A stretch of 64,000 bases of DNA from an uncultured virus (IMG/VR IMGVR_UViG_3300017963_000205) (IMGVR_UViG_3300017963_000205), one strand, 5' to 3'; positions 13,343 through 64,000 are shown, counted from the first letter of the stretch. Notes: generated from the letters alone by a model not told the origin. Made by a program: numbers and translations.

Positions 13343-13859
13343 CTTCGATGCCGTCATCCTGCAGTACGCCGTCGATCGTTTCGTCGTTGTCGGGCATTTC
13401 GACATAGGGCTTCAGAATCTTCGGCACGCGCTCGAAGCCTTCGTCCTTCAGGCGCGTGGCCATGTAGGAACGAATCTCTTCGTTGAACATCTCGCCCTCT
13501 TCGGGCGGGTCCAGCAACTGCACTTCGGCGATGGCCCAGCACATCTCCTGTACGGTGGCAAAGTCGAAGTTCTGGAAGTCGGCCCCGGAGCCGTTCAGTG
13601 CATTACAGATGTGGGTGAACGCGTCGAGGCTGGTGTAGAAGAGGTTGGTGGTCAGCTCGGTCACCAACGCCCAGATCTTGTCCTTGTTGACCTGCGGGAT
13701 GGACACGCTCCAATCATGCTTCACTTCCATGTCCAGCGTTTGTGGCTCCCAGCCGAACATCTCCGTGCCATACTCGTCAAGCAGCCCAACGAGCAGCACC
13801 GACCCGATTGCATCCGGGTCGGCGAGCTGTCTCATGAAGGGCCGTTTGTCGATTCGCAT
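13119..13859 (-). CDS. Hypothetical acidic protein, possibly head-associated
   Basis: 246 aa, last gene of a three-gene minus-strand operon. Confidence 0.6.
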   Translation of the reverse strand: MRIDKRPFMRQLADPDAIGSVLLVGLLDEYGTEMFGWEPQTLDMEVKHDWSVSIPQVNKDKIWALVTELTTNLFYTSLDAFTHICNALNGSGADFQNFDFATVQEMCWAIAEVQLLDPPEEGEMFNEEIRSYMATRLKDEGFERVPKILKPYVEMPDNDETIDGVLQDDGIEAKAFWDRQMREVLSIDQFVRERLHKLFVDLASLPLENADSEAMKATLQRAGKVLAGQSQQTAREEESVRPAPVL

Positions 13860-25871: not shown

Positions 25872-26066
25872 ATGGGACAGCCCGAACGCCTCGGTCAGAT
25901 CCTTCAGCGGGTCCTGGCCGAGATGGAGGAAAAACGCAGGTACGAACGCAAGGGCAGGCAACTGAACCTGCCCTTTGGCCCGATTTCGGAACCGGTTCCG
26001 AAGTCCACGGAGGGGAGAGAGGGGCGATCATGCCCGCTGAAGAGAAGGAAACCAACTGGGGCGTAG
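25872..26066 (+). CDS. Small hypothetical protein
   Basis: GGAGG RBS, operon position. Confidence 0.4.
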   Translation: MGQPERLGQILQRVLAEMEEKRRYERKGRQLNLPFGPISEPVPKSTEGREGRSCPLKRRKPTGA

Positions 26067-26152
26067 TGATCGGGACGATCGTGGGCTACGCCTTGCTCCT
26101 GTTGTTTTTCAGTTAGCCCGAGCGTACGAGCGCTCACATCCTGGAGAAACAA

Positions 26153-26464
26153 ATGATCTGCTGCCAGAAGGAACGTACGACTAAGTTCTGCCCGGACTGT
26201 GGAGCCCTGCTGGCCGGCACGGACCCACTAGATACGCTCATGGCACACTGCCGCTCCCAGGAGAACCTGAAGGCCCAGGAACTCGCTCGTGCTGAGAAAG
26301 ACTTAGAACGAGAGAGGCATCGCGCTGACAAGTTGGATCTTGTTCGTGCGGAAAGGGAGCTGCGGATGGCTCAGGCGCGGCATGCACGGTGGAAGTCTTG
26401 GGTAGAAGCCCTGGCAGAGGTGATTCTCACTGCCGAGGGCAAAGCCAAACAGGGCGCGCAGTAA
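26153..26464 (+). CDS. Zinc-ribbon/coiled-coil protein
   Basis: CC...KFCPDCG then a charged helix; GGAG RBS. Confidence 0.6.
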   Translation: MICCQKERTTKFCPDCGALLAGTDPLDTLMAHCRSQENLKAQELARAEKDLERERHRADKLDLVRAERELRMAQARHARWKSWVEALAEVILTAEGKAKQGAQ

Positions 26465-44485: not shown

Positions 44486-44585
44486 AGCCCAACAAGTGCC
44501 TTAGCTGCCCCAAGATGCTTGTTGGCAGGTGGGTGTTTTGAGTATAAACTTCTTCCGGGTGTGGGCACACTTCGGAGGAAACGCA

Positions 44586-49877: not shown

Positions 49878-50990
49878 ATGAGAATCGCATTTGCAGCAGA
49901 TCTGCACCTGCACCCGCACGCTTGGGCTTCGATGCCCGAGGTCCACGGCGACGCCTACCGGGCGTTCGACCAGATCGTGGATTTTTGCGTGCAGACCAGT
50001 GACGTCCACGCGCTCATTCTGGGCGGGGACGTTTTCGACACGAGCCCGCCGGCCGATGCGGTTCAGCACTTTCTGGCCGGTTTGGAGCGTCTCAAGCGAG
50101 GGCGCGTCCTGGTTTATGCCGTTCAAGGCCAACACGGGCGCTCCAACCCGCCGTGGACGGCGATCGATCCCTACATCGTCCATTTGCAGGGGCAGCCAAT
50201 CACGACACTCGAAGGCGTGTGCTTCACCGGCTTCGATCAGGACACGCCCGTCGAGATCAAGCGCAAACTCGAAGAGCTGGACCCCGGCGTCAACATGCTG
50301 ATCCTCCATCAGCTGTGTCGGGGGACCGTGCCGGACATCAGCGACCAACAAACGTGGGATCTGGACCCGGAATGGGTGCCGGAGCACGTGAAGCTGGTGC
50401 TGCTGGGCGATTACCACATGCTTTGGGAGCAGCGGAACAGCAAGGGCACGCAGTTCTGCTATCCGGGCTCCACGGCCGTCCAGGCCATCGACGAACCGGA
50501 TCAGAAGCATTTCTTTTCCATCCTCGTCGACGGCCCGGGGCAGTTTCAGGTGGAGCGGGTGGACATTCGGGGCCGTGTTTACACCCGGATGGTCATCCAG
50601 GTGTCGGAGGCGCTGGAGAGCGCGCTCACGTACATCCAGCAGCGCTCGCCCGATGAGGTGGTTCACATCAAGTACAACACGGACCTGCCGGACGTGGAGA
50701 AGCGGTTCCGTGAGATCAACGACGGCGTGCACTTCATGTTCCGGCCGCTGCCGAAGCAACTGGTCAGTGATCAGGCGAGCATTGATGTAAGCAAACTCAA
50801 GAAGATTTCCCTGGAAGGCTGTCTTGGGATGGCCATCGACCGGGAGAAGGAACCGGAGGCTCACGCTCTGACGCTCCGGCTCCTCAAGGCTGAGGACCCG
50901 CGCGTTGCGTTGGCCGAAGCCAGGGAGCACTTTCTAAACCCGGAACCGGTCGCGCAGCCGGCCATTCCTGACGACGAGGTCCCTTTCTGA
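49878..50990 (+). CDS. SbcD/Mre11-like nuclease
   Basis: ADLHL, GGDVFD, GQHG, ILHQ, LGDYH, YPGS; near SbcC. Confidence 0.85.
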   Translation: MRIAFAADLHLHPHAWASMPEVHGDAYRAFDQIVDFCVQTSDVHALILGGDVFDTSPPADAVQHFLAGLERLKRGRVLVYAVQGQHGRSNPPWTAIDPYIVHLQGQPITTLEGVCFTGFDQDTPVEIKRKLEELDPGVNMLILHQLCRGTVPDISDQQTWDLDPEWVPEHVKLVLLGDYHMLWEQRNSKGTQFCYPGSTAVQAIDEPDQKHFFSILVDGPGQFQVERVDIRGRVYTRMVIQVSEALESALTYIQQRSPDEVVHIKYNTDLPDVEKRFREINDGVHFMFRPLPKQLVSDQASIDVSKLKKISLEGCLGMAIDREKEPEAHALTLRLLKAEDPRVALAEAREHFLNPEPVAQPAIPDDEVPF

Positions 50991-51913
50991 TGCCCGATAA
51001 ACCGTTCAAGGACGCGCTTATTGAGATCGTCAATCAGGCGCAAACTTCGGGGGAATTCTTCCGTTTGGTGTGGAAGGCGTTCCCAGACTGGAGAGGCACG
51101 GCGCTTCTGCCGTTTCAGGATGCCCTTTGCAAAGAAGTTCACCTCGAAGGAAATCGGTGCCCTTTGTGCGATATTCTGCAGGTGCTTCGCCCGAACGGGT
51201 GGGAGCTAACGCTGGGGAAGACACTCATTTGTATCGCCGAGACCTTCATGGAAAAGGGGGAGTTGATCAAACCCAACGCTGACTTGCCCAAGCATCTGAA
51301 CCGCCATCGTGGCTATCATGTTCTCCGCTATATGGGGCACCTTATTGCGCAACCTGCCTCGTGTGACCTGGAAAACGAAAGCACCAAGGAGGCCAAAAAG
51401 GGAAACTGGGCTCCTACCGTGGACGGTCTGGAGTTTTTGTATATGGACGATCCGTCACCGCGCTCGGTGTACGTCTTGAAGCGCGCGGTTTTGGGCGTTA
51501 GTCAGATGGGGGAGGCGGAACGAAGCAAGTGTGGCGGGGAGGTTCCGGCTGACGACGTTGTTTCTGTTGGAGACGTCATGCGGATGAAGGGCTTTGACAT
51601 TTCTGCCGTGCGTGCCATGAACATCACGGACCCCGGAGCCTGGTCGAATTTTTGGGAGACTCCGACCCTTCCTAAGCGGGCGCTGGGATGGAAGGGCGCC
51701 AAAAAAGCCTGGCTTCTTTTCTGGTCCCAACATGTTAACAAGCACGGCGGATGGAAACTGATCATGGATATTCGCAGGCAGCAGGGACAGTGGGCGGCCG
51801 ATAACTTCGAGGCGGAATTTGCTAAGGCGCTCGATTGGCGGGAGCGCTTCTACCCTTTGTGGAAATCTCTCAAGGAAAGGGGCGTAGACTTCTACGGCAC
51901 AAATGAGAATTGA
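50990..51913 (+). CDS. Hypothetical protein with CPLC motif inserted between sbcD and sbcC
   Basis: 307 aa coupled ORF. Confidence 0.55.
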   Translation: MPDKPFKDALIEIVNQAQTSGEFFRLVWKAFPDWRGTALLPFQDALCKEVHLEGNRCPLCDILQVLRPNGWELTLGKTLICIAETFMEKGELIKPNADLPKHLNRHRGYHVLRYMGHLIAQPASCDLENESTKEAKKGNWAPTVDGLEFLYMDDPSPRSVYVLKRAVLGVSQMGEAERSKCGGEVPADDVVSVGDVMRMKGFDISAVRAMNITDPGAWSNFWETPTLPKRALGWKGAKKAWLLFWSQHVNKHGGWKLIMDIRRQQGQWAADNFEAEFAKALDWRERFYPLWKSLKERGVDFYGTNEN

Positions 51914-54023
51914 CACCGTAAGTCTGACGAACTTCTGTCAGCATCCCCAACGCAGCGACGAACTCGGGCCTGGCGTCATTGGGATCATCGGTCCCAATGG
52001 CGCCGGCAAATCCAATTACGTGAAGGCCATATTGCGAGCACTCACCGGCTCTTCGGGCAATCCGGGCCGCAAGGAGGAAGACGTTTCCTGGGGTCAGGAC
52101 AAGGGCGTCGTGGAGGTCGGGTTTACCGTTAACGGTCATTCCGGCTCGGTCCGGCGACAGTTGGCCAGCTCAAGCTGTCTGTTGAAGTACGGCGAGGAGA
52201 CCGTTCGCACCGCGCGCGAAGTCGACCGCAAGATGGAGTCGCTGATTGGCGTGGACAAGCACGTGCTCACGGACATGGTCTTCGTGCAGCAGGGCGCCAT
52301 CGAGGGCATCCTCTTCCAGCGGCCCTCCGAGCGGGCCAAGGCGCTCCAGAACTTGTTTGGGACCGCCTCGGCCGAAGCCTTGCGGGGGCTGTTGCTGGAC
52401 GAGATCAACCACACGCACATCGAAAGCCGTTCGGAGCCGATCGACCGGTTGGAGAAGATGATCGGGGATGCCGACGCCCGACTGGCCGAGATTGACGCAC
52501 GGATTGCGGCCTACCCGCCGGCGGATGTCACCAACATCGAGAGGCTGCGCAGGAACATCACCGAGTACAGGGCGCGTCTTCAGGCCACGGAGAACCTCCG
52601 TGAGGTCGAGAAACGCTTTGCTGCCAGTCGGGAGGAACTTTCAGGAATCCATTCCCAATTGTCGAAGCAGACATCCGACAGGGACATCATGAAGCGGGTC
52701 GTGGACGACGCCCGGTCCGACTACGAAGCCTCCCAGAAACGTGTGCAAGCCGAACAGACGTTTCAGTACAAGTTGTCCAGACGCGCCGAGCTTCTGCAGG
52801 AGAAGGCGGACTTGGAAGCTGCGCTGAAGCAGCCCGAACCACAGTGCGACGTCGACAAGGAGAAGCTGGACGAGCTGCGAGCACACTGCGAGGAGCTTCG
52901 AGCCTCCGTGAACGCCAGCCACAAGATCATCGGGCTGGCTGGGGCACTTGGCAGCGAAAAGGCGGTTTGCCCCACGTGCGACCAGCCCATAACCGAGGCG
53001 CACGTCGACAGCCACAAACTCAAGCTGGCCTCGGAGGAGCCGCAGCTGGGAATGTACGACAAAGACGTGCAGACCCGGGAAGCGGAGATCGAGAGCCATC
53101 GGGTAGCACACTTCAACTGGTGCGCGTCGCAGTACAACGCCAAGAAGGATGCTCAGCGCGTCGAGGAGGGTCTGAAGGCGCTTGGTGAGATCAAAGAGGC
53201 CGATGCCGACATTTCCAAGGACGTGAGTCTGATCAACGACTTCCAGAAGGCTGAGAAACTCCTTCAGGAGGCTGAGGTTGCGTTAAGCGGCCTGCAGGCC
53301 AGGTTCGACCAGCTGGACAGCCAGCAGGACCAGTTCATGGGGCAAATCAATGACCTGCGCAAGCAGGCCGGCGAGGAGCCGCTTCCAGACATTGCCAAGT
53401 TAGAGGAGGAACTGCGCTCGCTGGAAGAGACGCGCGAGGCCATCTCCCGTCTTCACGGGGAGAAGGTCGAGCTGGAACGCAACCGGACCGTCAACAAGCA
53501 GCAGTTGGAGATCTACCATCAGGAAGAGGCCGCCTTGAGCCAGTTGAAGGGGTGGCGGGAACTGATGGAGCGCGTGCGCATGGTTCTTCATCGGGACCAG
53601 CTTCCGAACATCGTCGCTCAGGCATATCTGGGGGCGCTGAACAAGAAACTGGCCGAGTACCTGGCCATCTTCGAGAGCCCCTTCATGGCGCAACTGAAGA
53701 CGGACATCTCAATCGAGTGCCAGTTCCCGGGTGGACACATTGCTGCGGCGGAGAGGCTGTCGGGCGGCCAGAAGGTGATGCTGGGCATCGCGTTTCGGTT
53801 CGCCATCTACGATCTCTTTGCCGAGAACCTGGGATTCATGGTTCTCGACGAGCCAACGGTGTATCTCGACACGGACCACGTGGAATCCGTGTTCACGCTG
53901 TTGGAAAGGGTGAAGAGTTATTCGGCCACGGCCGGTCTGCAGCTGATCATTCCCACGCACGAGGCGCGGCTGGCCGGGGTCCTTGATAAGGTGATCAGGC
54001 TTGGACTACCTGCTGCAGTGTGA
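51903..54023 (+). CDS. SbcC/Rad50-like ATPase
   Basis: GPNGAGKS, Q-loop, CPTC zinc hook, LSGGQ, VLDEPT, TH. Confidence 0.92.
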   Translation: MRIDTVSLTNFCQHPQRSDELGPGVIGIIGPNGAGKSNYVKAILRALTGSSGNPGRKEEDVSWGQDKGVVEVGFTVNGHSGSVRRQLASSSCLLKYGEETVRTAREVDRKMESLIGVDKHVLTDMVFVQQGAIEGILFQRPSERAKALQNLFGTASAEALRGLLLDEINHTHIESRSEPIDRLEKMIGDADARLAEIDARIAAYPPADVTNIERLRRNITEYRARLQATENLREVEKRFAASREELSGIHSQLSKQTSDRDIMKRVVDDARSDYEASQKRVQAEQTFQYKLSRRAELLQEKADLEAALKQPEPQCDVDKEKLDELRAHCEELRASVNASHKIIGLAGALGSEKAVCPTCDQPITEAHVDSHKLKLASEEPQLGMYDKDVQTREAEIESHRVAHFNWCASQYNAKKDAQRVEEGLKALGEIKEADADISKDVSLINDFQKAEKLLQEAEVALSGLQARFDQLDSQQDQFMGQINDLRKQAGEEPLPDIAKLEEELRSLEETREAISRLHGEKVELERNRTVNKQQLEIYHQEEAALSQLKGWRELMERVRMVLHRDQLPNIVAQAYLGALNKKLAEYLAIFESPFMAQLKTDISIECQFPGGHIAAAERLSGGQKVMLGIAFRFAIYDLFAENLGFMVLDEPTVYLDTDHVESVFTLLERVKSYSATAGLQLIIPTHEARLAGVLDKVIRLGLPAAV

Positions 54024-54891
54024 GGGGCACACGTATGTCAGGCGAGTGGAGGGGCCAAAAGGCTACCGTCTTTTGGCTCACCCCTCGCAGGTGCCCCTGA
54101 TTGAATCTTGCGCCAAGCTCGGCGATACCCGATTCTGCTGTTCCAACCTTCTGCGCGGCTCAAACCTTATGGATGGCGAGCAGGTGGTGGACCGGATGAC
54201 TTCGCTGGGAGAACCCGAATACGTTTTTAGGGATGATGTCCGTGACGGCTTGAAGTTTGCCGCTGCATACAACGAGACCGAGTTGAGAAGCAGCGGCGAC
54301 GTTCAGCGGCTTCTTCTGCGCTTGCGCCATCACCCGGCCGTTTTTGGTGGACTGGGTTTTGCTTTCAGAAACATGTTCACACCACATATAGCCCGTCTTC
54401 TGGCGGAGATCTACGACATACGGCGTTTCTTCAAGCCCGGGCATTCCAGAAGCATTTCCCGGCTGAAGAACTACTTCCGAGTGGTCACGCCGAAGCGCGT
54501 ACGGAGCCTGCACGGAAGGACGACCCAGACGCTGGGTGACGTCCGTTTGATGATCGCGTTGGACGCATGGCGGGATCACCCGATGACGGGCGACGCCATT
54601 GGGGAGGACCGGCCCACGGATGCATACTTTCCGGGGTTCTACTATGTGATGTGCAACGACATGGAGCAGGCTCACATAGATCCTCATGTTTTCACGGCTT
54701 ATGCCGCCTGGCGCACGACGGTCGCGTTCCTGCAGTTCGTCTTCTGGACGTGGGGCCAGCAGGTGGGGGCACCTCGGTTCGATCCCGAAAAACTCTTTCG
54801 TGGGCAGTACATTTGTGAGGGAGATGTGGCTCAAAGTTTCCGCAAGTATATCAGTCAGCTCGATCTTGACGACATGGAGATGCTGTTTTAA
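54001..54891 (+). CDS. Divergent IS110 C-terminal/Nop-domain-like protein (start uncertain)
   Basis: HHPAV...IARLLAEIYDIRRF...SRLKNYFRVVTP resembles AA.LLAEIGDI.RF...L.AYAGL.P. Confidence 0.5.
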   Translation: MDYLLQCEGHTYVRRVEGPKGYRLLAHPSQVPLIESCAKLGDTRFCCSNLLRGSNLMDGEQVVDRMTSLGEPEYVFRDDVRDGLKFAAAYNETELRSSGDVQRLLLRLRHHPAVFGGLGFAFRNMFTPHIARLLAEIYDIRRFFKPGHSRSISRLKNYFRVVTPKRVRSLHGRTTQTLGDVRLMIALDAWRDHPMTGDAIGEDRPTDAYFPGFYYVMCNDMEQAHIDPHVFTAYAAWRTTVAFLQFVFWTWGQQVGAPRFDPEKLFRGQYICEGDVAQSFRKYISQLDLDDMEMLF

Positions 54892-54915
54892 GCTATACGG
54901 GTAAGGAGGAATCCC

Positions 54916-55212
54916 ATGCGAAAAATCCTCGCAGCCCTCGCTCTCACCGTTCTTCTGACCGGGTGTGTAGACGACCGCATCAAGCGCCAGATCAGTCTGA
55001 CCAACACTCGGACGCAGGTGGCTGCCAAGGAGTTCAATGAGGCAGCCACGCCAGAGGAAAAGGTGAAGGTCGCCGACAGATACATCAACGGGGTGCCCGA
55101 AAGAGAGGTGCCTGGGATGAAGCACATGACCCAGGTGGCCGACGACTACTTTCAGGGCAAGGACCCGAAGGACCCGTTGAACATCCTCAAGAAAAAGAAG
55201 CCGGACGAGTAG
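54916..55212 (+). CDS. Small lipoprotein
   Basis: MRKILAALALTVLLTG-C lipobox; AAGGAGG RBS. Confidence 0.75.
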   Translation: MRKILAALALTVLLTGCVDDRIKRQISLTNTRTQVAAKEFNEAATPEEKVKVADRYINGVPEREVPGMKHMTQVADDYFQGKDPKDPLNILKKKKPDE

Positions 55213-55215
55213 AAG

Positions 55216-55809
55216 GTGGCTTCACTTCTCCGGGAACGCACAGATGAAGAGCTGGAATGGTTTCTCTTCTTCTCGATCGCTGTTGCCGGCAAAACAGGAC
55301 TCATTGTCGAGCAGGCCGTCGAGCGCTTCTTCCAGTTTGCGCATGAGCGGCCTTTTGAATACATACGACAGTTGATGGCTGATGGTTGGTACACGGCGGC
55401 CCTGCGCGCGGCGCGGGTCGGTCAGTACACCAAGATGAACCGAGCCATGAGGCACATCATTCAAAGCGGGCTCAACCCACGGACCTGCACGCTGGATGAG
55501 CTGGAAGCCGTGCCTGGCATCGGGCCGAAGACGGCCCGGTTCTTTCTGCTTTACACGCGCCCCGGGCAGCGCGTGGCCGCGCTTGACATTCACATCCTGC
55601 GGTTTCTGCGCAGGATCGGCGTGGACGCGCCCGACAACACGCCACAGAACCCAAAAACATACCGTCGGCTGGAGAAAGCGTTTCTGGATGCTGCCGACGG
55701 GTTGGAGATGACCCCTGCCGAGCTGGACGACGTTCTCTGGCGGGGAAGCTCATACAAGCCCAAAGCGCCTGTAGCTCAGCTGGCAGAGCCGGGTCTTCTA
55801 AAGTCCTGA
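55216..55809 (+). CDS. HhH-GPD DNA glycosylase-like protein
   Basis: LEAVPGIGPKTARFFL...AALDIHILRFL...Y.RLE..F...ELD..LW. Confidence 0.8.
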   Translation: MASLLRERTDEELEWFLFFSIAVAGKTGLIVEQAVERFFQFAHERPFEYIRQLMADGWYTAALRAARVGQYTKMNRAMRHIIQSGLNPRTCTLDELEAVPGIGPKTARFFLLYTRPGQRVAALDIHILRFLRRIGVDAPDNTPQNPKTYRRLEKAFLDAADGLEMTPAELDDVLWRGSSYKPKAPVAQLAEPGLLKS

Positions 55810-55841
55810 GAGCGTAGGTTCGAGTCCTACCGGGCGCACCA
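55765..55841 (+). tRNA. tRNA with probable CUA (amber suppressor) anticodon and encoded CCA
   Basis: GCGCCTG/CGGGCGC acceptor, GCTC/GAGC D-stem, GGGTC-TTCTAAA-GTCCT anticodon arm (one U-U), GTAGG-TTCGAGT-CCTAC T-arm, ACCA end. Confidence 0.8.
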
Positions 55842-55941
55842 AACCACGAAGGGAGGCATCATGGGATAGGGCTGTCGCTGTCGTGATCCTCCACGTTTCA
55901 GAGCCGTAGACCATTTAACCCTGAATCTGGAGGAAATTGGA

Positions 55942-56547
55942 ATGGAAATCACAGTAAGAGATGTGGCCGTTCACCACCATCAACGGGTATGTGAGCTGCT
56001 GATGGAAACCAAAGACGAGCTGGACGAGATCATGGAGCTGGAGTCGGCCGAAGGCGTGACCAAGCCCGGTGAACTCGTCTGCAAGAAGAAGAATGGCCGC
56101 AGGGTGTACAGCATCTTCTGCGGAGCGCCCGAGGGTTCGAAGGCAAAGGAGGCGTTCAAAGTCTACGCGCGGTATGAGGGGCTCCGGCACCAATCCAGGA
56201 TCTGGCACAACATCACGTACGCGTTGAAGCTGTGCGAGCGGCATGGGGTGAGCCCTGAGTCTGTTGCATTTTCGGGGGTTGCTCTTGCCAAAAGCATGAA
56301 AACCGAGAATCACCGCAAGGACTTCTGTGCGGCCACAATGCACATTGCTCCGAAGGCTATGGGGCGCGGTGAGGTGCGGGCGCTCACATTGGGCGCAGCC
56401 AAACAGTTGTTCAAGATCAAGGCGCGCCTCGATAATGGAGGCTACCGCTACGTCCGTGAGTGGAAGGAGAAGCGGGAAACCGAACGCGCCGAGCGCCAGC
56501 AGCAGATGGCAGACACAAAATCTGGGAGGGAACCCGTAACGGTTTAA
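55942..56547 (+). CDS. Hypothetical basic protein
   Basis: GGAGG RBS, 201 aa. Confidence 0.6.
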   Translation: MEITVRDVAVHHHQRVCELLMETKDELDEIMELESAEGVTKPGELVCKKKNGRRVYSIFCGAPEGSKAKEAFKVYARYEGLRHQSRIWHNITYALKLCERHGVSPESVAFSGVALAKSMKTENHRKDFCAATMHIAPKAMGRGEVRALTLGAAKQLFKIKARLDNGGYRYVREWKEKRETERAERQQQMADTKSGREPVTV

Positions 56548-56557
56548 GGAGGTAGCC

Positions 56558-56872
56558 ATGAAGATGTACGTGTTGACCCGGCGTGACCTCACGCCGGCGC
56601 AGCGCGTCGTCCAATCATGCCACGCCGTCGCGCAGCTTGTGCTGCGCAGCGGCACGGACCCATAGGTCCGGCATTGGGGGGACGCGCATCAGACGCTCGT
56701 CGTATTGGGCGTGAACGACCAGGAAGAGCTGGAACGTTGGGAGTCGAGGCTCAAGCAGGAGAGGGTACACCATGAGGTGTTCGTCGAACCGGATTTCGGC
56801 GAACAGAAAACAGCTTTGGCGGTGAGCCCGGCTACCGACCCACGACTATTCAGAGAGCTGCGGCTTCTCTGA
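56558..56872 (+). CDS. PTH2-like peptidyl-tRNA hydrolase domain protein with in-frame TAG at codon 36
   Basis: AAGGAGGT RBS; MYVLTRRDL...VQSCHAV...GTDP*VRHW...TLVVLGV...FVEPD...TALAV.P...FRELRLL; TAG at 56663-56665. Confidence 0.75.
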
Positions 56873-56937
56873 AACGGGACGCCCGGCTCGGCCGGGCGCC
56901 TCCATTCGGATTGGTCCCGGCCAGAAAGGAGCACAAG

Positions 56938-57264
56938 ATGGCTTTTGATTGGGATCAAGTCCTTGAGGTGGCAGAGGACAGCGGCAAAGAGCTGCTGGAT
57001 CTTCTGAAGCCATACATTCCCGCTTTGAAGCGGGAAGGCAAAGAGGTCTATGAGGGTTTCCTGAAGCATCTGTTCGATGCCGACTGGGAGGCCATAGACC
57101 GTCAAATGTACGAACACATGACGCCGGAAGAGCGCGAGGTTCTCGATTCACAAGTCTACAAGGACGCCATACAGGCCACGCGCGCCAAGTTCCGGCAAAA
57201 GGAGCTGGTGCGTGAGGTCATGTTCAGGGTCAGCCTCCGACTCTTGATGGTGGCAATCCTTTAA
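56938..57264 (+). CDS. Hypothetical protein
   Basis: AAGGAG RBS. Confidence 0.6.
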   Translation: MAFDWDQVLEVAEDSGKELLDLLKPYIPALKREGKEVYEGFLKHLFDADWEAIDRQMYEHMTPEEREVLDSQVYKDAIQATRAKFRQKELVREVMFRVSLRLLMVAIL

Positions 57265-57292
57265 GCGCTCCTTCCGGCGAAAGGAGGAGCAC

Positions 57293-57607
57293 ATGCAAAC
57301 GGCGAAGCGATGCCAGATCATCCTATCCCCCCGGTGTTTCGATGACATGTTTGGAAGACGCATGAAAATCGTGAACGCCTTTTTAAGTTGGGGGCGGTTA
57401 GTCATCAATGTAGAGGGTGTCGGCTTTACCGGAGACTCCGCCGAGGAGGTCATGGTGGAGGAGTTCGATTCTCTCCCGCAGTTGCGAAACTGGATTGGGA
57501 GGCAGCTGACCAATGGAAGTGGTAGCCACGCTCCGGTTTCTAACGCCCAGCCTCGGCAACGCAAGAGGCGAGCGTCGGGACCGCATGCTGTACAGCACCG
57601 AAGGTGA
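57293..57607 (+). CDS. Hypothetical protein
   Basis: AAGGAGGAG RBS; tail overlaps the next gene. Confidence 0.5.
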   Translation: MQTAKRCQIILSPRCFDDMFGRRMKIVNAFLSWGRLVINVEGVGFTGDSAEEVMVEEFDSLPQLRNWIGRQLTNGSGSHAPVSNAQPRQRKRRASGPHAVQHRR

Positions 57608-57962
57608 GGTGGTGTATCTGCAATCCTGGTGGCGGTCGAGCCTGGGCTATGCCGCGCAGGCTCTCTGCCGCCACCAGGGGACAATAGACAAGATCCAGGC
57701 GGACCCTGTTGTGCGGGGCCCGGTATCCATACACAAGAGGTTCTATAGTCCGACTTCGTTTAAGGAGCATGAAGCGTTCCTCGCCGGAACCGAGGTTGAG
57801 GTTCGCTTCATGCTGCCAAAGAAACTGCGTTTGGAGGCGTTCAGGGAGCTTCTTGAAACGGCCGGCAAGTACGCCGGTATCTCCCCGTACGGCTACAAGC
57901 AGGATTACGGGAGGTTCATCGTTGTCGACGTCCGTTCCGGTTCAAATCACAAGGATCGGTGA
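57513..57962 (+). CDS. Solo RAMP-superfamily (Cas7-like) protein
   Basis: GGAGG RBS; ATLRFLTPSLG, HEAFLAGTEVEVRF, LLETAGKYAGISPYGYKQDYGRFIV glycine-loop pattern. Confidence 0.65.
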   Translation: MEVVATLRFLTPSLGNARGERRDRMLYSTEGEVVYLQSWWRSSLGYAAQALCRHQGTIDKIQADPVVRGPVSIHKRFYSPTSFKEHEAFLAGTEVEVRFMLPKKLRLEAFRELLETAGKYAGISPYGYKQDYGRFIVVDVRSGSNHKDR

Positions 57963-59367
57963 TCTCGTCCGCGTGCCGAGGGTTGTATTCGACTACGCCG
58001 GGCTGGACCCGCTCCTGACCTATTACCGACGTGTTCAAGACGGCGCCAACCCCGCTGACGCCGATTTGGAGGAAACGAAGCTGTACGCGTTCGACGGGAA
58101 CGGCGACGCGCTGGTTCAGGCGGGGCTGATTTCTCGCATGTTCCAGCGTTTGCGGGATGTGGGGTACGCCCCGTTCATCGACGATCGGCGTGGAGCGGTG
58201 CTTCCGCCTCCCGATTACAACCGGCTGGACCTGCACACGCTTCGTGAGGACCAGATACAAATGATCGCCTCCGTCGTCTCTCACGATCGGGGGATCATCG
58301 AGGGGCCCACTGGCTCCGGCAAGTCCTTCGTGATCGGGCAGCTCTGCAAAATGTGGCCGAGCGCCAAGGTCATCATCTGTTCACCCGTCATGGGCGTTCT
58401 GCACACGGCCGTCGAGGAGCTGCGTGCCTGCTTCCCGAAGAACCAGGTGGGCATGTGCGGTGACGGCTTCAGAGAGATTCGCAGGATCACCTGCAGCACA
58501 ACCAAGAGCCTCGGGTATTGCGATCTGGACGACTGTCAGCTCTTCATCTTTGATGAGGTGCATAGGGCTGCCGCGCCCGAGACGTCCAGAATGATCGCCC
58601 GGGTGCGCAACGCGCGCAGGTACGGATTCTCGGCCTCGCCCGACGGCAGAAGCGATCTTGCCGACATGGAGGCTGAAGCCATGTTCGGCCCGATCGTCTA
58701 CAAGGGCACCTACCAGGAGTCCCAGGCGCGCGGCGCCGTGGTTCCGATCGAGGTGTACATGGTCAGCTGCTACGCAGTGCCGAACGAGGACTACGACGGC
58801 ACCGTGGCGCTGGAACGCAATATGTTGTGGCGTTGCGCGCACAGGAACGGATTGATTGTGTCCGCAGTGCGCTGGCTGCAGCGAACTTTTGATCCTGACA
58901 TGCAAATTCAGATCATAGTAGCCAAGGTGGAGCACGCCGCTCACCTTGCCCCGGCTCTCCCCGATTTCGAGCTGGTCTACGGCAGCATGCATGCCAACGA
59001 TCGGAAGAAATGGGAGAACAACAACCTCATTCCGAAGGACAAGCACCCGATCACGGCCGCCGAGCGCGAGGAAATGCGCCGGGCCTTTCGGGCGGGCACG
59101 CTCCGTCGCGTGATCTCCACGCATACGTGGGGCACCGGCGTCGACTTCCCCAAGTTGGGTGCGATGATCCGCGCCGACGGCGGTTCCGGCAAGATCGCCA
59201 ACATCCAGCTCACGGGACGCGTAACACGCCCCTCCGACGGCAAGGAGGTGGGCGTCGTCATCGACTTCGACGATGTTCACAACCGCCGATTGTCGGGCAG
59301 GGCCCTCAAACGGATCGTAACTTACAGGAGCAAAGGATGGAAGGTCGGGAGCCTGCGCCTGAACTGA
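57922..59367 (+). CDS. SF2 DEAD/DEAH helicase (UvsW-like)
   Basis: GGAGG RBS before TTG 57922; GPTGSGKS, DEVH, SAS, TGVDFP, QLTGRVTR. Confidence 0.9.
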   Translation: MSTSVPVQITRIGDLVRVPRVVFDYAGLDPLLTYYRRVQDGANPADADLEETKLYAFDGNGDALVQAGLISRMFQRLRDVGYAPFIDDRRGAVLPPPDYNRLDLHTLREDQIQMIASVVSHDRGIIEGPTGSGKSFVIGQLCKMWPSAKVIICSPVMGVLHTAVEELRACFPKNQVGMCGDGFREIRRITCSTTKSLGYCDLDDCQLFIFDEVHRAAAPETSRMIARVRNARRYGFSASPDGRSDLADMEAEAMFGPIVYKGTYQESQARGAVVPIEVYMVSCYAVPNEDYDGTVALERNMLWRCAHRNGLIVSAVRWLQRTFDPDMQIQIIVAKVEHAAHLAPALPDFELVYGSMHANDRKKWENNNLIPKDKHPITAAEREEMRRAFRAGTLRRVISTHTWGTGVDFPKLGAMIRADGGSGKIANIQLTGRVTRPSDGKEVGVVIDFDDVHNRRLSGRALKRIVTYRSKGWKVGSLRLN

Positions 59368-59885
59368 TTGCCGAGTACGCGGAGCGCCTGAAGGACAGCT
59401 ACCTTTTTCTGAGAAAAAGAATCCGGCCCAACATCAAGCGTATCGCTTCGGGGCAGGATCACTTATGGAAAAGGGCGGCCGTGGCGCTGATCAACAACGA
59501 GGCGGACCCGGCGGAATTTGTCCAATTCGTGTTTGACAAAATCCTTGTCAACCACGATGACGTGTTCGTGAACATGGTCACATCGATCGCTCTGGTCGGT
59601 GAGTTCACGGAGGAGGCTAAACCGTTACGTGATAAGAGGTTGGAGGTCGTTGCGGCTTCCCAACTGCATGCCCTTGCTACCCGTATTCGGGACGGTCAGG
59701 ACATGCGCAAAGCGTTAACGGACCCGGACGCGAACTTCTCGGCGGTTTTCCGATATGTTGTGGCTCTGGAGCATGGGCACCACGACATAGCGGATCGTTA
59801 TCGCTCTGACGCCGAGCGTATGATGCGGTTCAAACCGCATTACAAAAAGCTGTTCAAAGAGTGGCTGAGGAAAGCCGATGCCTGA
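59337..59885 (+). CDS. Hypothetical replication-cluster protein
   Basis: AGGAG RBS; fills the gap between the two helicases. Confidence 0.55.
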   Translation: MEGREPAPELIAEYAERLKDSYLFLRKRIRPNIKRIASGQDHLWKRAAVALINNEADPAEFVQFVFDKILVNHDDVFVNMVTSIALVGEFTEEAKPLRDKRLEVVAASQLHALATRIRDGQDMRKALTDPDANFSAVFRYVVALEHGHHDIADRYRSDAERMMRFKPHYKKLFKEWLRKADA

Positions 59886-61368
59886 CCGCAGCAACCATCC
59901 GATTCGGACCGTGCTCAAGGCCGATTTGGATGTCATCATGTGCCATCTCATCCGATGCGGTGAGGTGTGCCAGCAGCTCTCGAACCAGATCCGCCTCGAA
60001 GACTTCGACGAGTCCTACGAGCGGAATTACCAATTGCTGTTCGCCGTCACGCAGCAGTTCTGGATGAAGTTCCAGAAGCCCATCACGTGGCACGTTCTGA
60101 ACGCGGAGATCATTAACCGCACGCAGGGTGTGCCCGATTATGAGCCGGCCGTCGTCCAGAGCATCATCAACCAGGCGTACAGCTACTTCGTTCCAGGCCC
60201 GGAGGAACTCTGCCCGGAGTACGCGCTTTCCGTGGCCGAGGACTTCCTGTACCAGCGCCGCGTTGCGGCGAAGATGGTCACGGCCGTCGAGCAATACGGC
60301 ATGCAGCACATGCCACGAACGATCGTGGAGGAGCTGCACAGCCAACAACAGACGGTTCTGGCCTGCCGGGACATCGCACCAATCAATCCGTTCGAGACGT
60401 TGATGCTGGGCGTGGAGCCTCGCATCAAGTTGGGTGAGCGGGTGATGTTTTTGGAGACACAGCTTGGCGGCGGGGTGCGCACGGGGGCGATGTACGGTTT
60501 CATCGCGCCCTCTGGCGGCGGCAAGACGACGATGTCGCACCAGTTGGCATATTCGTTTGCTTCGCTGGGCAACCATGTGGTGGTTTTCACTTACGAGCAG
60601 CCCATTACGCCGGAATACATGATGTCCCTGTACGCGACGGCCGGGCAGATCGATCGGAAAGAGCTTGAGGCGTTACGCCCCGGCGAGCAGCTTCCCGCTG
60701 ACAAACAGGAGAAGCTCACCAAGGCCGGCGAGACGTGCGCGACATATCTGCACTATGTCGACATGTCCGGTGTGCGTAATCGCATGGGTGCCGGAGGCCC
60801 TCCCGAAATCGATGCCGTGCTTCTGGCCATGGAGCGAAAGTACGGCATCAAGATAGGCTGCTACATTCTTGACTGGTTCTGGCCGATGTTGGTGCGCTAC
60901 TACGCCAACTACGATGTGGGCTACGGCAAGAGACAGGAGCTGCGCCATTTTGCGCAGGACATGACCTACCAGCTTCGACAGGTGGGCGAGCGTCACGGCG
61001 CGTGGTGCTGGATCAACCAGCAGGTTGCGCCCGACGTGGCTGCCAAGAAGAAGGAAGTGGATTTCGAGGATGCCGCCGAGTTCAAGTCCTTTGCCTGGTA
61101 CATGGATGGCTGCTTCGCGCTGTCCAAGCTCGATGCCAACAAATACGGCGTCCTGAAATACGGCAAAGGCCGTTACGAAAAGGTAGACAAACAGGTCATT
61201 CAGCTGAAGGGGCACCTGAGCACGTTCGTGCCCGTCGGCGAGGACATGGTCTACGACGACTTGCAGGGACAGCACGTCGCGCGGGGACGGCAGCATCGCG
61301 TGCCAACCGGCGACGAAGAACCTTCGCGCTCGCAGCGTGTTGCTGATTTAGAGGGTACTGATGGATGA
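59878..61368 (+). CDS. DnaB-like replicative helicase
   Basis: LGGGVRTG...APSGGGKT Walker A, FTYEQ, YILDW, NQQ; adjacent to primase. Confidence 0.8.
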   Translation: MPDRSNHPIRTVLKADLDVIMCHLIRCGEVCQQLSNQIRLEDFDESYERNYQLLFAVTQQFWMKFQKPITWHVLNAEIINRTQGVPDYEPAVVQSIINQAYSYFVPGPEELCPEYALSVAEDFLYQRRVAAKMVTAVEQYGMQHMPRTIVEELHSQQQTVLACRDIAPINPFETLMLGVEPRIKLGERVMFLETQLGGGVRTGAMYGFIAPSGGGKTTMSHQLAYSFASLGNHVVVFTYEQPITPEYMMSLYATAGQIDRKELEALRPGEQLPADKQEKLTKAGETCATYLHYVDMSGVRNRMGAGGPPEIDAVLLAMERKYGIKIGCYILDWFWPMLVRYYANYDVGYGKRQELRHFAQDMTYQLRQVGERHGAWCWINQQVAPDVAAKKKEVDFEDAAEFKSFAWYMDGCFALSKLDANKYGVLKYGKGRYEKVDKQVIQLKGHLSTFVPVGEDMVYDDLQGQHVARGRQHRVPTGDEEPSRSQRVADLEGTDG

Positions 61369-62401
61369 ATTGAACCCAAAGCTGTTTGCAGCTTTGGAGA
61401 AACGCTTCGGGAAAGTGCTGATTTCCAACCCCGGCGAGCGTTTAGTGGAGCGCAAGATACCCGACCCGGTGCGGCCAGGACGACACAAGCAGTTGATCCT
61501 TCGCAGCGGGGAGTATTACAGAGTGGACTGCCCCTATTGCAGCGACAAACGGGGCAGGTTGTACATCAACTACAGATGGAACACGCGCACCCGGAATGGC
61601 GACCGTTTTGGCCGCTTTTTGGCCGTCTGCTTCAATGAAGGGTGTGACCTGAGTGGCTTGGACATGGAACTCGGGGCTCTGGCGAAGAACTGGCCGGTCG
61701 TGGACCGTCCCTACACAAACAAGCCGGACAGCGGGCCGGAGTTTGCCCCGCAGGTCATGCCGGGAGTCTGTCTCCCGTTGGACACGCTGCCGCCGGAGCA
61801 CGAGGCGTGCAAGTACGTTCGTGAGAAACGGGGGTTTGACCCGGTCGAGCTGGGGCGGATGTGGGGCGTTTCCTATTGCGTCCACTGCGGGGTGACCGAC
61901 AAGACGCCATATCCCGGGCTGGTCCGGGGGAGGCTGGTCATTCCCATCTGGCGTTCGGGTGTTCTGGTTGGGTGGCAAACAAGGGCTCTCAATGAGCACG
62001 ACAGCCCGAAGTATTACACCATGCCGGGTTTCCCGAAGTCGAGGATGCTTTTCAACCAGGACCGCGCGCAGCAGTATCGCTTTGGCGTTGTAGTAGAGGG
62101 GGTCTTTGACGCTTTCCGCGTCGGCGACCGTGCCGTGGCGCTGTTCGGCAAATCGATGAGTCAGACGCAGCGCGAACTTGCCGTTGCTTACTGGGGGCAG
62201 GGGGCGCTGTGCATCGTTCTGGATGATGACGCGACGGAGGACATGGACCGTCTCAGCCAGGTCATGGACCCGATGAAGTTCAAGGACGGGTCCTTTATTG
62301 TTAGGCTGCCAATCGGGAAAGATCCGGGCAACATGGATCGAGACGAATTGTGGAGGTTGATCGCGTCAAATGCCCGAAATCATGGAGTACGGCTTGCCTG
62401 A
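61361..62401 (+). CDS. DNA primase (zinc finger plus TOPRIM)
   Basis: CPYC...CFNEGC, RLVIPI...GWQTR...PKY, VVEGVFDA, LDDDA, KDPG. Confidence 0.9.
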   Translation: MDELNPKLFAALEKRFGKVLISNPGERLVERKIPDPVRPGRHKQLILRSGEYYRVDCPYCSDKRGRLYINYRWNTRTRNGDRFGRFLAVCFNEGCDLSGLDMELGALAKNWPVVDRPYTNKPDSGPEFAPQVMPGVCLPLDTLPPEHEACKYVREKRGFDPVELGRMWGVSYCVHCGVTDKTPYPGLVRGRLVIPIWRSGVLVGWQTRALNEHDSPKYYTMPGFPKSRMLFNQDRAQQYRFGVVVEGVFDAFRVGDRAVALFGKSMSQTQRELAVAYWGQGALCIVLDDDATEDMDRLSQVMDPMKFKDGSFIVRLPIGKDPGNMDRDELWRLIASNARNHGVRLA

Positions 62402-64000
62402 TTACGCAAGCGCCAGAGACAAGACAGCTCCAAAACCGGCTCCCGAGCCGGTTCAAGAGCTGGAACCTGTGCCGACGCCGGAACCTACGAGCGTGTATGC
62501 TCGTTTTCCGCTCACGCAGTCCTACATGGAAGCCTCGACGATGTACGGGATGGACCCGGTTGCCGTGGCTGAACAACTCCTTCACCGGGCAACGGACGTT
62601 CCCATCATCGACGTGAAGGGCGAGCCGCTTCGGCCAGTGCTCTGGATTCCCAGCTGCGTGCTGGGGACGGGGCGCAAATTGCTGCCGGGGGTGGATTTTC
62701 ATACGAGGCTGATGGTTGTGGGTAAGCGCCCCGGCGTTGACGAGATCAGGGACCGTCGGGTCTTCGTCGGCGAGACGGGAAGGCTGCTCAGGGACGTGGC
62801 CAACGAAGTGGGAATGGGTTCCGAAATCGAAGCTGCGTTCGGGACCAACGTGTTGCGCTTCATCCCCTTTGACGGTGGCAAGACGTTGAGGCCCCACCAC
62901 GTTCGGGACTGCCTGCCGCTTCTGGCGCGTGAGATCGACCTCATCAAACCGCAGTTCATCCTGCTCTTGGGCACGGATGCGGTGAAGGTCTTCTTTGGCA
63001 GCAAACAAACCCTCCAGCGCGTGAGGCATCGCTTGTTCCTCATGCGAAGCATTCAGGACATGGGCACCAATCGCGTCATCGACGCCAGCAAGATCTCCGT
63101 CGACAATCCCGTCTGGCGGGACAGCGTTAAAATATACGCGACTGTGCACCCCGCCGCTGTTCTCAGGGAAGGGGGCCTTCGAGACGGCTTCAAGTCTGAC
63201 ATGGCCCAAATGCGCATGATCATGGGCGGTCACGTCTCCAACCCCACGCCCGGCGAGGGCATGGATTACCGCTACGTCAATACGGCACGGGACCTGCAGG
63301 CTGTCATTCAGCAGGCTGAACAGGAGAGCCCGGTGATCGCCGTTGACTGTGAGTGGGGTGATGGTGAGTGGTCCCGAGGCGGTAAGCTGCGCTGTATCCA
63401 GTTCTCGTGGAAGCCGGGCAGCGCTTGTGTGGTGATCCTTCGTCACGCGGACATGGTCGACTCCCAGGCGCCGACTGAACGACTGGAGATGCTCCGGCTG
63501 CTCCGAGAGTATTTCATCAAGATGCACATCGTTGGCCACAATTTCAGGGCTGACGCTCCGTGGCTACAGGAGTTGGGCATTGACGTTATGCCAAATCTTT
63601 GCTTCGACACCATGTTGGCCGATCACGCGTTGAACGAGAACGCGGAACACGCATTGGAGTCCTGCGCGGCCCGTTACACCAACATGGGCCGTTACGACTG
63701 GGATCTGAACGAGTGGGTTCGGCGCAACAATGTGGAGAAGGGAGAAGGCTACCGGGACGTGCCCGATGAGCTGCTCTTTCCGTACGGTGCCGCCGACGCG
63801 GATGCGACGCTTCGCTGCTACGTGACATTGCGTGACATGTTGCAGAAGCCGGAGAACAACGGGGTTGCCCGACTGTTCTACACGACGGTCATGCCGGCTA
63901 ACTACCCGCTCTACGAGATGGAACGCAACGGGCTGCTGGCCGATTTCGAGCGCATGGAGGTTCTGGTTCACCTCTATGCCAACCGGAAGGAAGAGCTGGT
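62370..64000 (+). CDS. Family A-type DNA polymerase with N-terminal UDG family 4-like domain, 3'-partial
   Basis: Open to window end; LMVVGKRPG..E....VFVGETGRLL and HPAAVLR (UDG); AVDCE, GHNFRAD, FDTML, YGAADAD (3'-5' exonuclease); the polymerase domain lies beyond the window. Confidence 0.85.
   Translation, partial: MPEIMEYGLPDYASARDKTAPKPAPEPVQELEPVPTPEPTSVYARFPLTQSYMEASTMYGMDPVAVAEQLLHRATDVPIIDVKGEPLRPVLWIPSCVLGTGRKLLPGVDFHTRLMVVGKRPGVDEIRDRRVFVGETGRLLRDVANEVGMGSEIEAAFGTNVLRFIPFDGGKTLRPHHVRDCLPLLAREIDLIKPQFILLLGTDAVKVFFGSKQTLQRVRHRLFLMRSIQDMGTNRVIDASKISVDNPVWRDSVKIYATVHPAAVLREGGLRDGFKSDMAQMRMIMGGHVSNPTPGEGMDYRYVNTARDLQAVIQQAEQESPVIAVDCEWGDGEWSRGGKLRCIQFSWKPGSACVVILRHADMVDSQAPTERLEMLRLLREYFIKMHIVGHNFRADAPWLQELGIDVMPNLCFDTMLADHALNENAEHALESCAARYTNMGRYDWDLNEWVRRNNVEKGEGYRDVPDELLFPYGAADADATLRCYVTLRDMLQKPENNGVARLFYTTVMPANYPLYEMERNGLLADFERMEVLVHLYANRKEEL

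Follow-up and report, generated by a model that had tools for sequence, protein, structure and literature searches.

What is a stop codon doing inside a gene whose reading frame runs on past it? The question is raised by a stretch of 64,000 nucleotides (nt) from an uncultured virus (IMG/VR IMGVR_UViG_3300017963_000205), here called the window, which is part of a metagenome contig of 186,023 bases. In this stretch a gene for a protein resembling the PTH2 peptidyl-tRNA hydrolases carries an in-frame TAG (amber) at codon 36, and a tRNA gene with the anticodon CUA lies upstream of it on the same strand. Judging from the sequence and its relatives, it is probable that the PTH2-like enzyme is completed only if the phage tRNA(CUA) decodes UAG-36, and that its output follows the activity of this suppressor.

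The window has a G+C content of 60%, and nearly all of its long open reading frames (ORFs) are on the + strand. Its Pfam matches include collagen-repeat proteins, glycosyltransferases, dihydroorotate dehydrogenase, a helicase, an SbcC-like ATPase next to a phosphoesterase, and a uracil-DNA-glycosylase with a fused 3'-5' exonuclease domain. This gene content is that of a large phage. Among the loci compared below, L004 is the window's own record, identical over 10,312 bases.

A gene in two pieces

A first-pass annotation of the window, made from its sequence alone, had described a strong ribosome-binding site, a frame of 104 codons with PTH2 motifs on both sides of a single TAG (56663-56665), and a CUA tRNA about 0.8 kb away, and had remarked that the ORF track misses the gene. 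Each of these observations holds. The Shine-Dalgarno sequence AAGGAGG stands 5 nt ahead of the ATG. When TAG-36 is read as sense the frame has 104 sense positions, and one match to the Pfam family PTH2 (PF01981) covers residues 1-95 unbroken across the stop, reaching profile positions 1-103 of 115 (E-value 1.5e-11; 45 bits against a cut-off of 23). PHROGs 3668 and 1866 also match across it. Under translation table 11, the frame is split into two ORFs, 56558..56665 (35 amino acids) and 56705..56872 (55 amino acids, with a TTG start). The tRNA is confirmed by both ARAGORN and Rfam. From its end it is 717 nt to the ATG and 822 nt to TAG-36.

The base composition is coding-like on both sides of the stop. 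The G+C fractions at the three codon positions are 0.68/0.44/0.83 upstream of TAG-36 and 0.73/0.37/0.72 downstream.

The 101 nt around TAG-36 fold with a z-score of -2.36 and place the TAG at a small hairpin loop. By eye, this hairpin is not kept in the flanking sequences of the other loci with a TAG at codon 36. A scan of positions 54800-57800 for promoters and terminators gave no signal beyond that expected from shuffled sequence. At 56880-56898, 8 nt past the stop codon of the PTH2-like gene, is a perfect 8-bp G+C-rich hairpin, CGCCCGGC tcg GCCGGGCG. It has no T-run and hence was not listed by the terminator scan.

Family and fold

A profile of 33 family members matches PTH2 chains in PDB with E-values from 2.7e-9 to 5e-3. 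The AlphaFold2 model of the protein, built on 33 family members, has a mean predicted local distance difference test score (pLDDT) of 97.7 and a predicted template modelling score (pTM) of 0.89. When this model is compared with PDB by Foldseek, the top matches are the PTH2 structures 2zv3, 1q7s, 1rlk, 1wn2, 3erj, and 1xty, with template modelling (TM) scores of 0.81-0.85. They include MJ0051 (2zv3_A, 0.85), human Bit1 (1q7s_B, 0.82), and a Sulfolobus enzyme (1xty_A, 0.81), with Ta0108, PH1539, and AF2095 also among the top. One further match is significant, to 2gax, an Agrobacterium protein of unknown function (E-value 8e-4, TM score 0.70). All remaining matches have E-values above 0.2.

The model suggests how the protein is divided by the stop. 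A strand (residues 2-8) and a helix (residues 13-31) precede TAG-36, and the remaining three strands come after it. Residue 36 itself is at the N-terminal end of helix 2, which spans residues 35-44. On this model, neither piece alone forms the PTH2 fold and both halves are needed.

The motifs RxDL and QxxHA, together with W40 and T85-A86, align with conserved positions of MJ0051. The acidic loop has the form EPDxGxQ, not the archaeal form, and aligns with a gap.

Conservation of the amber codon

A search of 1.84 billion representative proteins returned 938 relatives. The best full-length relative, P0002, is 50% identical and has Gln exactly at the position of TAG-36. Ser, Arg, Leu, Gly, or Val occurs at this position in other full-length relatives. 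The database proteins also include C-terminal pieces. Four of these (P0021, P0028, P0059, and P0131) begin at position 37, and two others, P0006 (76% identical) and P0090, begin at position 47. Such pieces are what a gene caller yields when a stop sits at codon 36.

A pattern scan of metagenome contigs with alignment A2 provided 65 loci, to which the window protein was then aligned by tblastn. The stop falls at the same aligned position in L004-L008 and L010-L014, and in all of them it is a TAG followed by G. Besides the window's record, these are nine loci (L005-L008 and L010-L014) on separate contigs, with 45-55% protein identity to the window. The conservation of TAG-36, which the first-pass annotation had named as a check, is therefore found.

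L013 equals L014 in sequence, and both are near-identical to L012. The codon comparison uses eight distinct rows, with L013, L014, and L009 left out. Only 4 of its 104 columns are identical in codon across all eight rows, namely TAG-36, two TGG, and one CAG. For most pairs, third positions agree at a fraction of 0.32-0.61 of identical residues in the codon alignment. With third positions so diverged, neither a nonsense codon that is merely tolerated nor a sense codon free to vary would have survived.

Likewise, the part of the gene after the stop shows no sign of relaxed selection. Of the 24 invariant amino acid columns, 14 are located after TAG-36, including the EPDxGxQxT motif, and the 3' half is the best-conserved part of the gene.

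Contigs from sequencing runs provide a second kind of support, since they show TAG at this codon and not CAG, GAG, or AAG. The stretch is present without differences in runs X1 and X2, whose contig sizes are identical. The two probably represent a single data set, which may even be the one the window came from, and do not count as independent. Another study contributed run X3, with a 188-nt contig at a depth of 2.7 that covers 56611-56798 with 7 differences, none of them at 56663-56665. None of the runs listed is an RNA run. One of these, 56662 A>G, changes CCA to CCG and is thus a synonymous change adjoining the retained TAG.

A tRNA that matches the stop

The window encodes a single tRNA, the tRNA(CUA). 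Its variable loop is 5 nt long, its discriminator base is A, and its CCA is encoded. Its anticodon stem (55792-55808) has one U-U mismatch and one G-U pair, as marked in the Rfam alignment. The label "Pyl" given by ARAGORN follows from the anticodon alone, and none of the 67 window ORFs scanned has a Pfam match to the pylS or pylBCD families.

The pairing of gene and tRNA recurs in related loci. In the group with TAG-36, a tRNA-CUA is found 0.7-2.6 kb upstream on the same strand in 7 of 10 loci, the window's record included. That is six of the nine further loci; in the remaining three, no more than 656 nt of sequence is available upstream. In the family as a whole, 36 of 67 non-duplicate loci have a suppressor tRNA (CUA or UUA) on the same strand within 2.7 kb, and the fraction is 10 of 12 where at least 2.7 kb is available on both sides. 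The suppressor is the sole tRNA in the flank for 22 of these 36 loci, and suppressors make up 39 of the 105 tRNAs across all loci.

Evidence for a functional connection is provided by the covariation of stop and anticodon. Wherever both are visible they match, with 26 cases of TAG with CUA, 2 of TAA with UUA, and no mismatches. Four loci have TAA at codon 3 in place of TAG, and the two among them with a visible tRNA, L003 and L030, have the anticodon UUA. The co-occurrence of TAG and tRNA-CUA that had been expected for the window's relatives thus extends, with a change of stop type, to sister clades.

The two UUA tRNAs are most like different CUA tRNAs (0.83 to that of L052, 0.75 to that of L050) and only 0.64 like each other. 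This suggests two separate events, and the switch from TAG to TAA together with the anticodon probably happened twice.

As to the amino acid inserted, the nearest non-suppressor tRNA among the loci compared is the tRNA-Lys(ctt) of Mycobacterium phage I3. Its score is weak, too little to name the residue. A codon for Gln, the residue of P0002, is one step from TAG.

Two unusual tRNA arrangements were seen beside genes of this family. L055 has two tandem tRNA-CUA genes (192-341) directly after its PTH2-like gene. In L001, ARAGORN reports an odd tRNA with the four-base anticodon "ttca" (1537-1609), 1 kb from an intact PTH2-like gene. Its neighbours are a tRNA-binding-domain-like ORF and an HD-domain-like ORF, names that were read from translations and not from a family search.

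One probable target in a standard code

An in-frame TAG next to a suppressor tRNA raises the question of whether the genetic code as a whole has changed. In a greedy set of 86 + strand ORFs from the window, the stops are TGA in 57, TAA in 16, and TAG in 13. The ORFs that end in TAG include homologues of dihydroorotate dehydrogenase and a sulfotransferase, whose Pfam matches end near the stop. Coverage by greedy ORFs falls from 0.91 under code 11 to 0.88 when TAG is read as sense. The first-pass annotation had considered that further targets might appear when TAG is read as sense. When the window was re-called in this way, no other in-frame TAG was supported, leaving one among the 86 ORFs. Within these 64 kb, the window uses the standard code with one dedicated target beside the tRNA, and not a changed genetic code.

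Several candidates were rejected. In-frame TAG codons at 13636, 25108, and 55210 lack family support, and translation across them gives what looks like an off-frame product or two separate genes. The upstream ATG of the candidate at 44502 falls within the last part of a small gene read in a different frame, and GGAGGA with an ATG at 44587 provides the collagen-like gene with a start of its own. A further arrangement can be read either way. At 26030-26464, a membrane-helix-like start is followed by TAG at 26114 and then by an in-frame Cys-rich ORF (ATG at 26153), with no family match, and this may be one gated gene or two.

In some relatives, ORF coverage rises when TAG is taken as sense, from 0.65 to 0.79 in L043 and from 0.70 to 0.88 in L049, and also in L014 and L045. 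These relatives may have more TAG targets.

Stops at other positions in the family

Other clades have no stop at codon 36 and carry a stop at codons 3-11 of the same gene instead. One typical form is ATG AAG TAG (A/G)TN AAA TTA GTA, encoding M K stop I/V K L V T V T R, for instance ATG AAG TAG ATT AAA TTA GTA. Other forms are M K stop V N Q K L, M R K H stop, and M K N P T H T stop. In the loci read, these start-proximal stops are contiguous and in frame with the PTH2-like domain.

In 30 of 33 loci, there is no ATG, GTG, or TTG between the start-proximal stop and the RxDL motif, the exceptions being L015, L019, and L048, which are ambiguous. In those 30, the whole domain can therefore be made only from the upstream start and by reading of the stop. 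A further position is seen in L036, which belongs to a different clade and has a TAG at about codon 33, some three codons before the position used in the window.

In a tree of 64 rows, the group with the stop at codon 36 is compatible with one origin, and start-proximal stops are spread over three or more other parts of it. An internal stop is absent from twenty loci of the family.

Some members of the family are longer proteins. In L015 (259-897), the PTH2-like domain is preceded by a 117-codon ORF, with nothing but an in-frame TAG between them, and read-through would give a two-domain protein. Fused forms similar to this putative product are found in L002, L056, and the phages XacN1 (L069) and RAS14 (L070). 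An internal stop is absent from the XacN1 and RAS14 forms. The XacN1 protein is a fusion of 279 amino acids with the PTH2-like domain as its C-terminal part.

An uncultured huge phage (L072, a record of 634,780 bp) has a PTH2-like gene that begins, at about 3975-4000, with ATG AAC AAT TAG ATT AAT GAA ACA AAA TTA ATT GTT. No tRNA was found within 4 kb on either side of this gene.

Proposed mechanism

In the proposed mechanism, release factor 1 and the charged suppressor tRNA would compete at UAG-36. If release factor 1 wins, the product would be a 35-residue fragment that misses most of the fold and would be useless. If the suppressor tRNA wins, the whole 104-residue enzyme would be made. The enzyme level would be tied in this way to how active the suppressor tRNA is. 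Read-through would gain an advantage in this competition from the Asp-Pro ahead of the stop and the purine following it.

The completed enzyme would presumably hydrolyse ester-linked tRNA (peptidyl- or N-acyl-aminoacyl-tRNA), as PTH2 enzymes do. The coupling would match the hydrolase to suppressor activity, either by clearing peptidyl-tRNAs as by-products of suppression or by limiting the suppressor itself.

Gating by the suppressor tRNA was already proposed in the first-pass annotation, and this part is supported by the conservation of TAG, the linkage of the tRNA, and the covariation of stop and anticodon. Two further parts of that proposal, that the protein recycles tRNA and that the arrangement is an on/off switch and not dosage coupling, we only infer.

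The sequence next to the stop can be compared with what is known about termination. According to a review (PMC3985003), Asp-Pro or Glu-Pro before the stop leads to inefficient termination in E. coli. The residues before TAG-36 are Asp-Pro or Glu-Pro in 6 of 10 rows and Asp-Thr or Glu-Thr in the rest. A purine after UAG is reported to favour suppression (PMC6266110). The base after the stop is A or G in all 42 distinct in-frame stops (31 start-proximal and 11 mid-gene TAG), a weak signal given that 61% of first codon positions are purines, that 9 of 13 terminal TAGs share the purine, and that the loci are related. The local context fits selection for read-through.

The weakness of the purine signal is one of several points that weigh against gating. 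The stop can be lost, since L009, which is nested among the TAG-36 rows, has GAT (Asp) at codon 36 and P0002 has Gln there. Six of the twenty loci without an internal stop are still beside a tRNA-CUA, so that gating is not obligatory for the pairing, and the pairing goes beyond gating. A single motif, F[VIT]EPDxG[DE]Q, retrieved all loci, which makes them a biased sample of the family. In all 68 loci the reading frame was followed upstream from the domain, and the classes of start-proximal stops were assigned by eye. The tree rests on 111 columns and has many open forks. Other TAG targets were looked for within 64 kb of the 186-kb contig. Finally, peptidyl-tRNA hydrolase activity is assumed from family and fold.

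A broader hypothesis takes in the family as a whole, and we consider it unlikely. In this hypothesis, PTH2-like proteins would be the dedicated partners of phage suppressor tRNAs in a feedback loop, which would arise because the message of the enzyme itself needs the suppressor tRNA to be read. The enzyme would hydrolyse the charged or peptidyl suppressor tRNA, or peptidyl-tRNAs made by suppression, and so hold suppression at a set level. The stop would have entered the gene on several independent occasions, giving the positions at codons 3-11, near codon 33 (L036), and at codon 36, with TAG changing to TAA together with the anticodon at least twice.

Alternative explanations

A single stop in a small gene of a metagenome contig could be an assembly or sequencing error, or a recent nonsense mutation in a dying gene, as the first-pass annotation had noted. 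The exact matches in runs X1 and X2 leave room for this explanation, as the two runs probably form a single data set and may be the source of the window. Nevertheless it is scarcely credible, since TAG-36 is kept in nine further loci at 45-55% protein identity, a divergence that excludes chimeric copies. The TAG is as conserved as the invariant Trp codons, more than half of the invariant residues are in the 3' half, and the diverged X3 contig keeps the TAG beside a synonymous change. Alternatively, the two halves may be separate products, a 35-residue peptide and a C-terminal piece with an internal start, such as the proteins that gene callers list from positions 37 and 47. There is a very slight chance that this is correct. 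The PTH2 fold needs strand 1 and helix 1, both of which are encoded before the TAG. The codon after the TAG is GTC, and the first start codon is a TTG at codon 50, inside the strand at residues 46-52. Moreover, the in-frame continuity of the two halves is kept in all rows.

The remaining explanations accept that the stop is read and differ in how. The phage may read TAG as an amino acid throughout, as in code 15, making TAG-36 one sense codon among many. A suppressor tRNA is encoded, TAG-recoded phages are known (bioRxiv 10.1101/2021.08.26.457843), L043 and L049 gain ORF coverage with TAG as sense, and about 122 kb of the contig lies outside the window. However, this explanation is highly improbable in view of the 13 of 86 + strand ORFs that end in TAG, the coverage that does not rise, and the lack of any other supported in-frame TAG in the window. 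In addition, drift to CAG or CAA would be expected of a sense codon at a variable surface position, whereas the TAG is invariant although synonymous sites are near saturation. Finally, the TAG may act as a throttle that depends on rare spontaneous read-through by host tRNAs, with the neighbouring tRNA unrelated. Near-cognate read-through of UAG is known to exist in bacteria, and the charging and expression of the tRNA(CUA) are presumed. This explanation is improbable too, since the stop type follows the anticodon without a mismatch and since in 36 of 67 loci the gene shares its strand with a suppressor tRNA no more than 2.7 kb away. Expression could also be throttled more cheaply by a weak ribosome-binding site, yet the gene has AAGGAGG. 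Suppressor-dependent completion of the enzyme therefore continues to be the preferred explanation.

Neighbouring genes

The features of the locus are collected in Table 1. The ORF of 201 amino acids between the tRNA and the PTH2-like gene has no Pfam or PHROGs match. A family of about 150 amino acids (A3) neighbours the PTH2-like gene in TAG-36 loci and was considered as a conserved third gene of the module. This was rejected, as A3 is not detectably related to the 201-amino-acid ORF (hhalign probability 0.7%). By BLAST, A3 has no copy in the window, and it shows no relation to the N-terminal domain of the fused form in L002. Pfam and PHROGs provided nothing usable for any neighbour gene.

Table 1. 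Positions of the PTH2-like gene, its signals, and nearby features in the window, with ochre-type tRNAs of two related loci
Feature	Position	Strand	Evidence
tRNA, anticodon CUA (amber suppressor)	55765..55841	+	ARAGORN; Rfam RF00005, 53.3 bits against a gathering score of 29
AGGGAGG then ATG GGA TAG, in frame with the 201-codon ORF, 20 nt after the tRNA	55850..55869	+	sequence
ORF of 201 amino acids between tRNA(CUA) and the PTH2-like gene	55942..56547	+	own Shine-Dalgarno sequence and ATG at 55942
Shine-Dalgarno sequence AAGGAGG, 5 nt before ATG	56546..56552	+	read from sequence
PTH2-like gene, 104 codons, one internal TAG	56558..56872	+	Pfam, AlphaFold2, Foldseek, family profile
Start ATG of the PTH2-like gene	56558-56560	+	read from sequence
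In-frame TAG, codon 36, with Asp-Pro before and G after	56663..56665	+	sequence, model; same aligned codon in L005-L008, L010-L014
Terminal TGA of the PTH2-like gene	56870-56872	+	read from sequence
tRNA, anticodon UUA (ochre-type), beside a PTH2-like gene with TAA at codon 3	L003 4112-4186		
tRNA, anticodon UUA (ochre-type), beside a PTH2-like gene with TAA at codon 3	L030 4595-4667		

A second gene may be gated in some of these phages. In L011, L012, and L014, a Shine-Dalgarno sequence and ATG ACN TAG GTA come directly after the tRNA-CUA (at about 255-270, 420-435, and 418-433, respectively), with no start codon past that TAG. The gene that follows encodes a conserved protein of about 100-116 amino acids with a CxCxC motif. 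By its sequence, it is a second candidate for gating in these three loci, and perhaps the window has one too.

In the window, ATG GGA TAG stands at the corresponding place after the tRNA and is possibly a second gated start or a two-codon mini-ORF. The 40 codons after it (25 before the ATG at 55942 and 15 beyond) have a G+C fraction at third positions of only 0.40.

Upstream of these genes, a lipoprotein-like ORF (54916-55212) ends in TAG and is in frame with an ORF for an HhH/Ogg-like glycosylase (55216-55809), the last 45 nt of which overlap the tRNA gene. Read-through would fuse the two ORFs, and the arrangement may be due to chance.

Relation to known systems

The best-known use of suppressor tRNAs by phages is found in code 15 phages (crAss-like, Lak, and related phages), in which TAG is read as Gln (bioRxiv 10.1101/2021.08.26.457843). 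As in those phages, a phage tRNA(CUA) would make an in-frame TAG readable here, and the idea that expression of the suppressor controls which genes are translated is shared. The extent is very different. According to the preprint, in-frame stops occur in 26-71% of genes (mean by clade) and coding density under code 11 collapses, compared with one supported gene among 86 ORFs in the window, where 13 ORFs end in TAG. The targets differ as well, since in the window the stop is in a translation-related enzyme beside the tRNA and not in structural or lysis genes. The words "peptidyl" and "hydrolase" are absent from the main text of the preprint.

PTH2 genes of jumbo phages have also been described in a paper (PMC7824862), which proposes that they rescue ribosomes after tRNA cleavage and, in the available text, has no mention of suppressors. 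The proteins of these phages and of Bixzunavirus mycobacteriophages belong to the same family and have the same fold, but an internal stop is not described in that text.

An example from a cultured virus is Mycobacterium phage I3 (L071, 2977-3729). By its GenBank annotation, a "peptidyl tRNA hydrolase" is encoded 300 nt upstream of a tRNA(cta), the first of an array of 14 tRNAs. Here ATG TAG directly precedes the annotated GTG start, and the Shine-Dalgarno spacing favours the GTG. The start is probably this GTG, just after ATG TAG, and gating in phage I3 is doubtful.

A parallel among standard-code phages is Xanthomonas phage XacN1, which has two CUA tRNAs. Its authors extended translation past 18 amber stops and found no target (PMC5852040). 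It resembles the phage of the window in having a CUA suppressor tRNA under the standard code. Unlike in XacN1, a natural target gene is supplied here.

Outside phages, a comparable arrangement exists in a gene involved in translation itself. The gene for release factor 2 (prfB) has a conserved in-frame UGA near its start, is read by a +1 frameshift, and senses its own product. In both cases, a translation-factor gene has a conserved in-frame stop and its output depends on how that stop is decoded. In the PTH2-like gene, by contrast, the frame is unchanged and the sensed component would be a tRNA.

Full-text searches found no paper that links genes for PTH2 or peptidyl-tRNA hydrolase to suppressor tRNAs or to an internal stop, with supplements (including Table S2 of the bioRxiv preprint, on genes with a code change) outside their scope. 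Close phage relatives were likewise missing from the collections searched. A megablast of positions 50000-64000 against a phage collection gave no match, and the window's helicase had none in viral contigs. A word-based protein search with P0001 found nothing, and P0001 alone as query in viral contigs gave only L001, at 37% identity. Alignment A2 found 2 loci in viral contigs and no relative among 14 pattern matches in genome contigs. On the sequences compared, the proposed suppressor-dependent translation of one conserved target gene, paired with its tRNA in an otherwise standard-code phage, is a new variant.

Implications

The suppressor tRNAs of standard-code phages had no known target, and the stop-bearing PTH2-like gene provides a natural client that can be tested. 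Gating of one gene would exist apart from genome-wide recoding, and it may mark a first step towards recoding or a separate regulatory use. There is also a practical consequence for annotation. Gene callers split or truncate these genes, and the PTH2-like family is therefore mis-annotated in metagenomes.

If the suppressor tRNA is indeed acted on by the enzyme, the two would form a compact natural device for controlling read-through, which would be of interest to genetic-code engineering.

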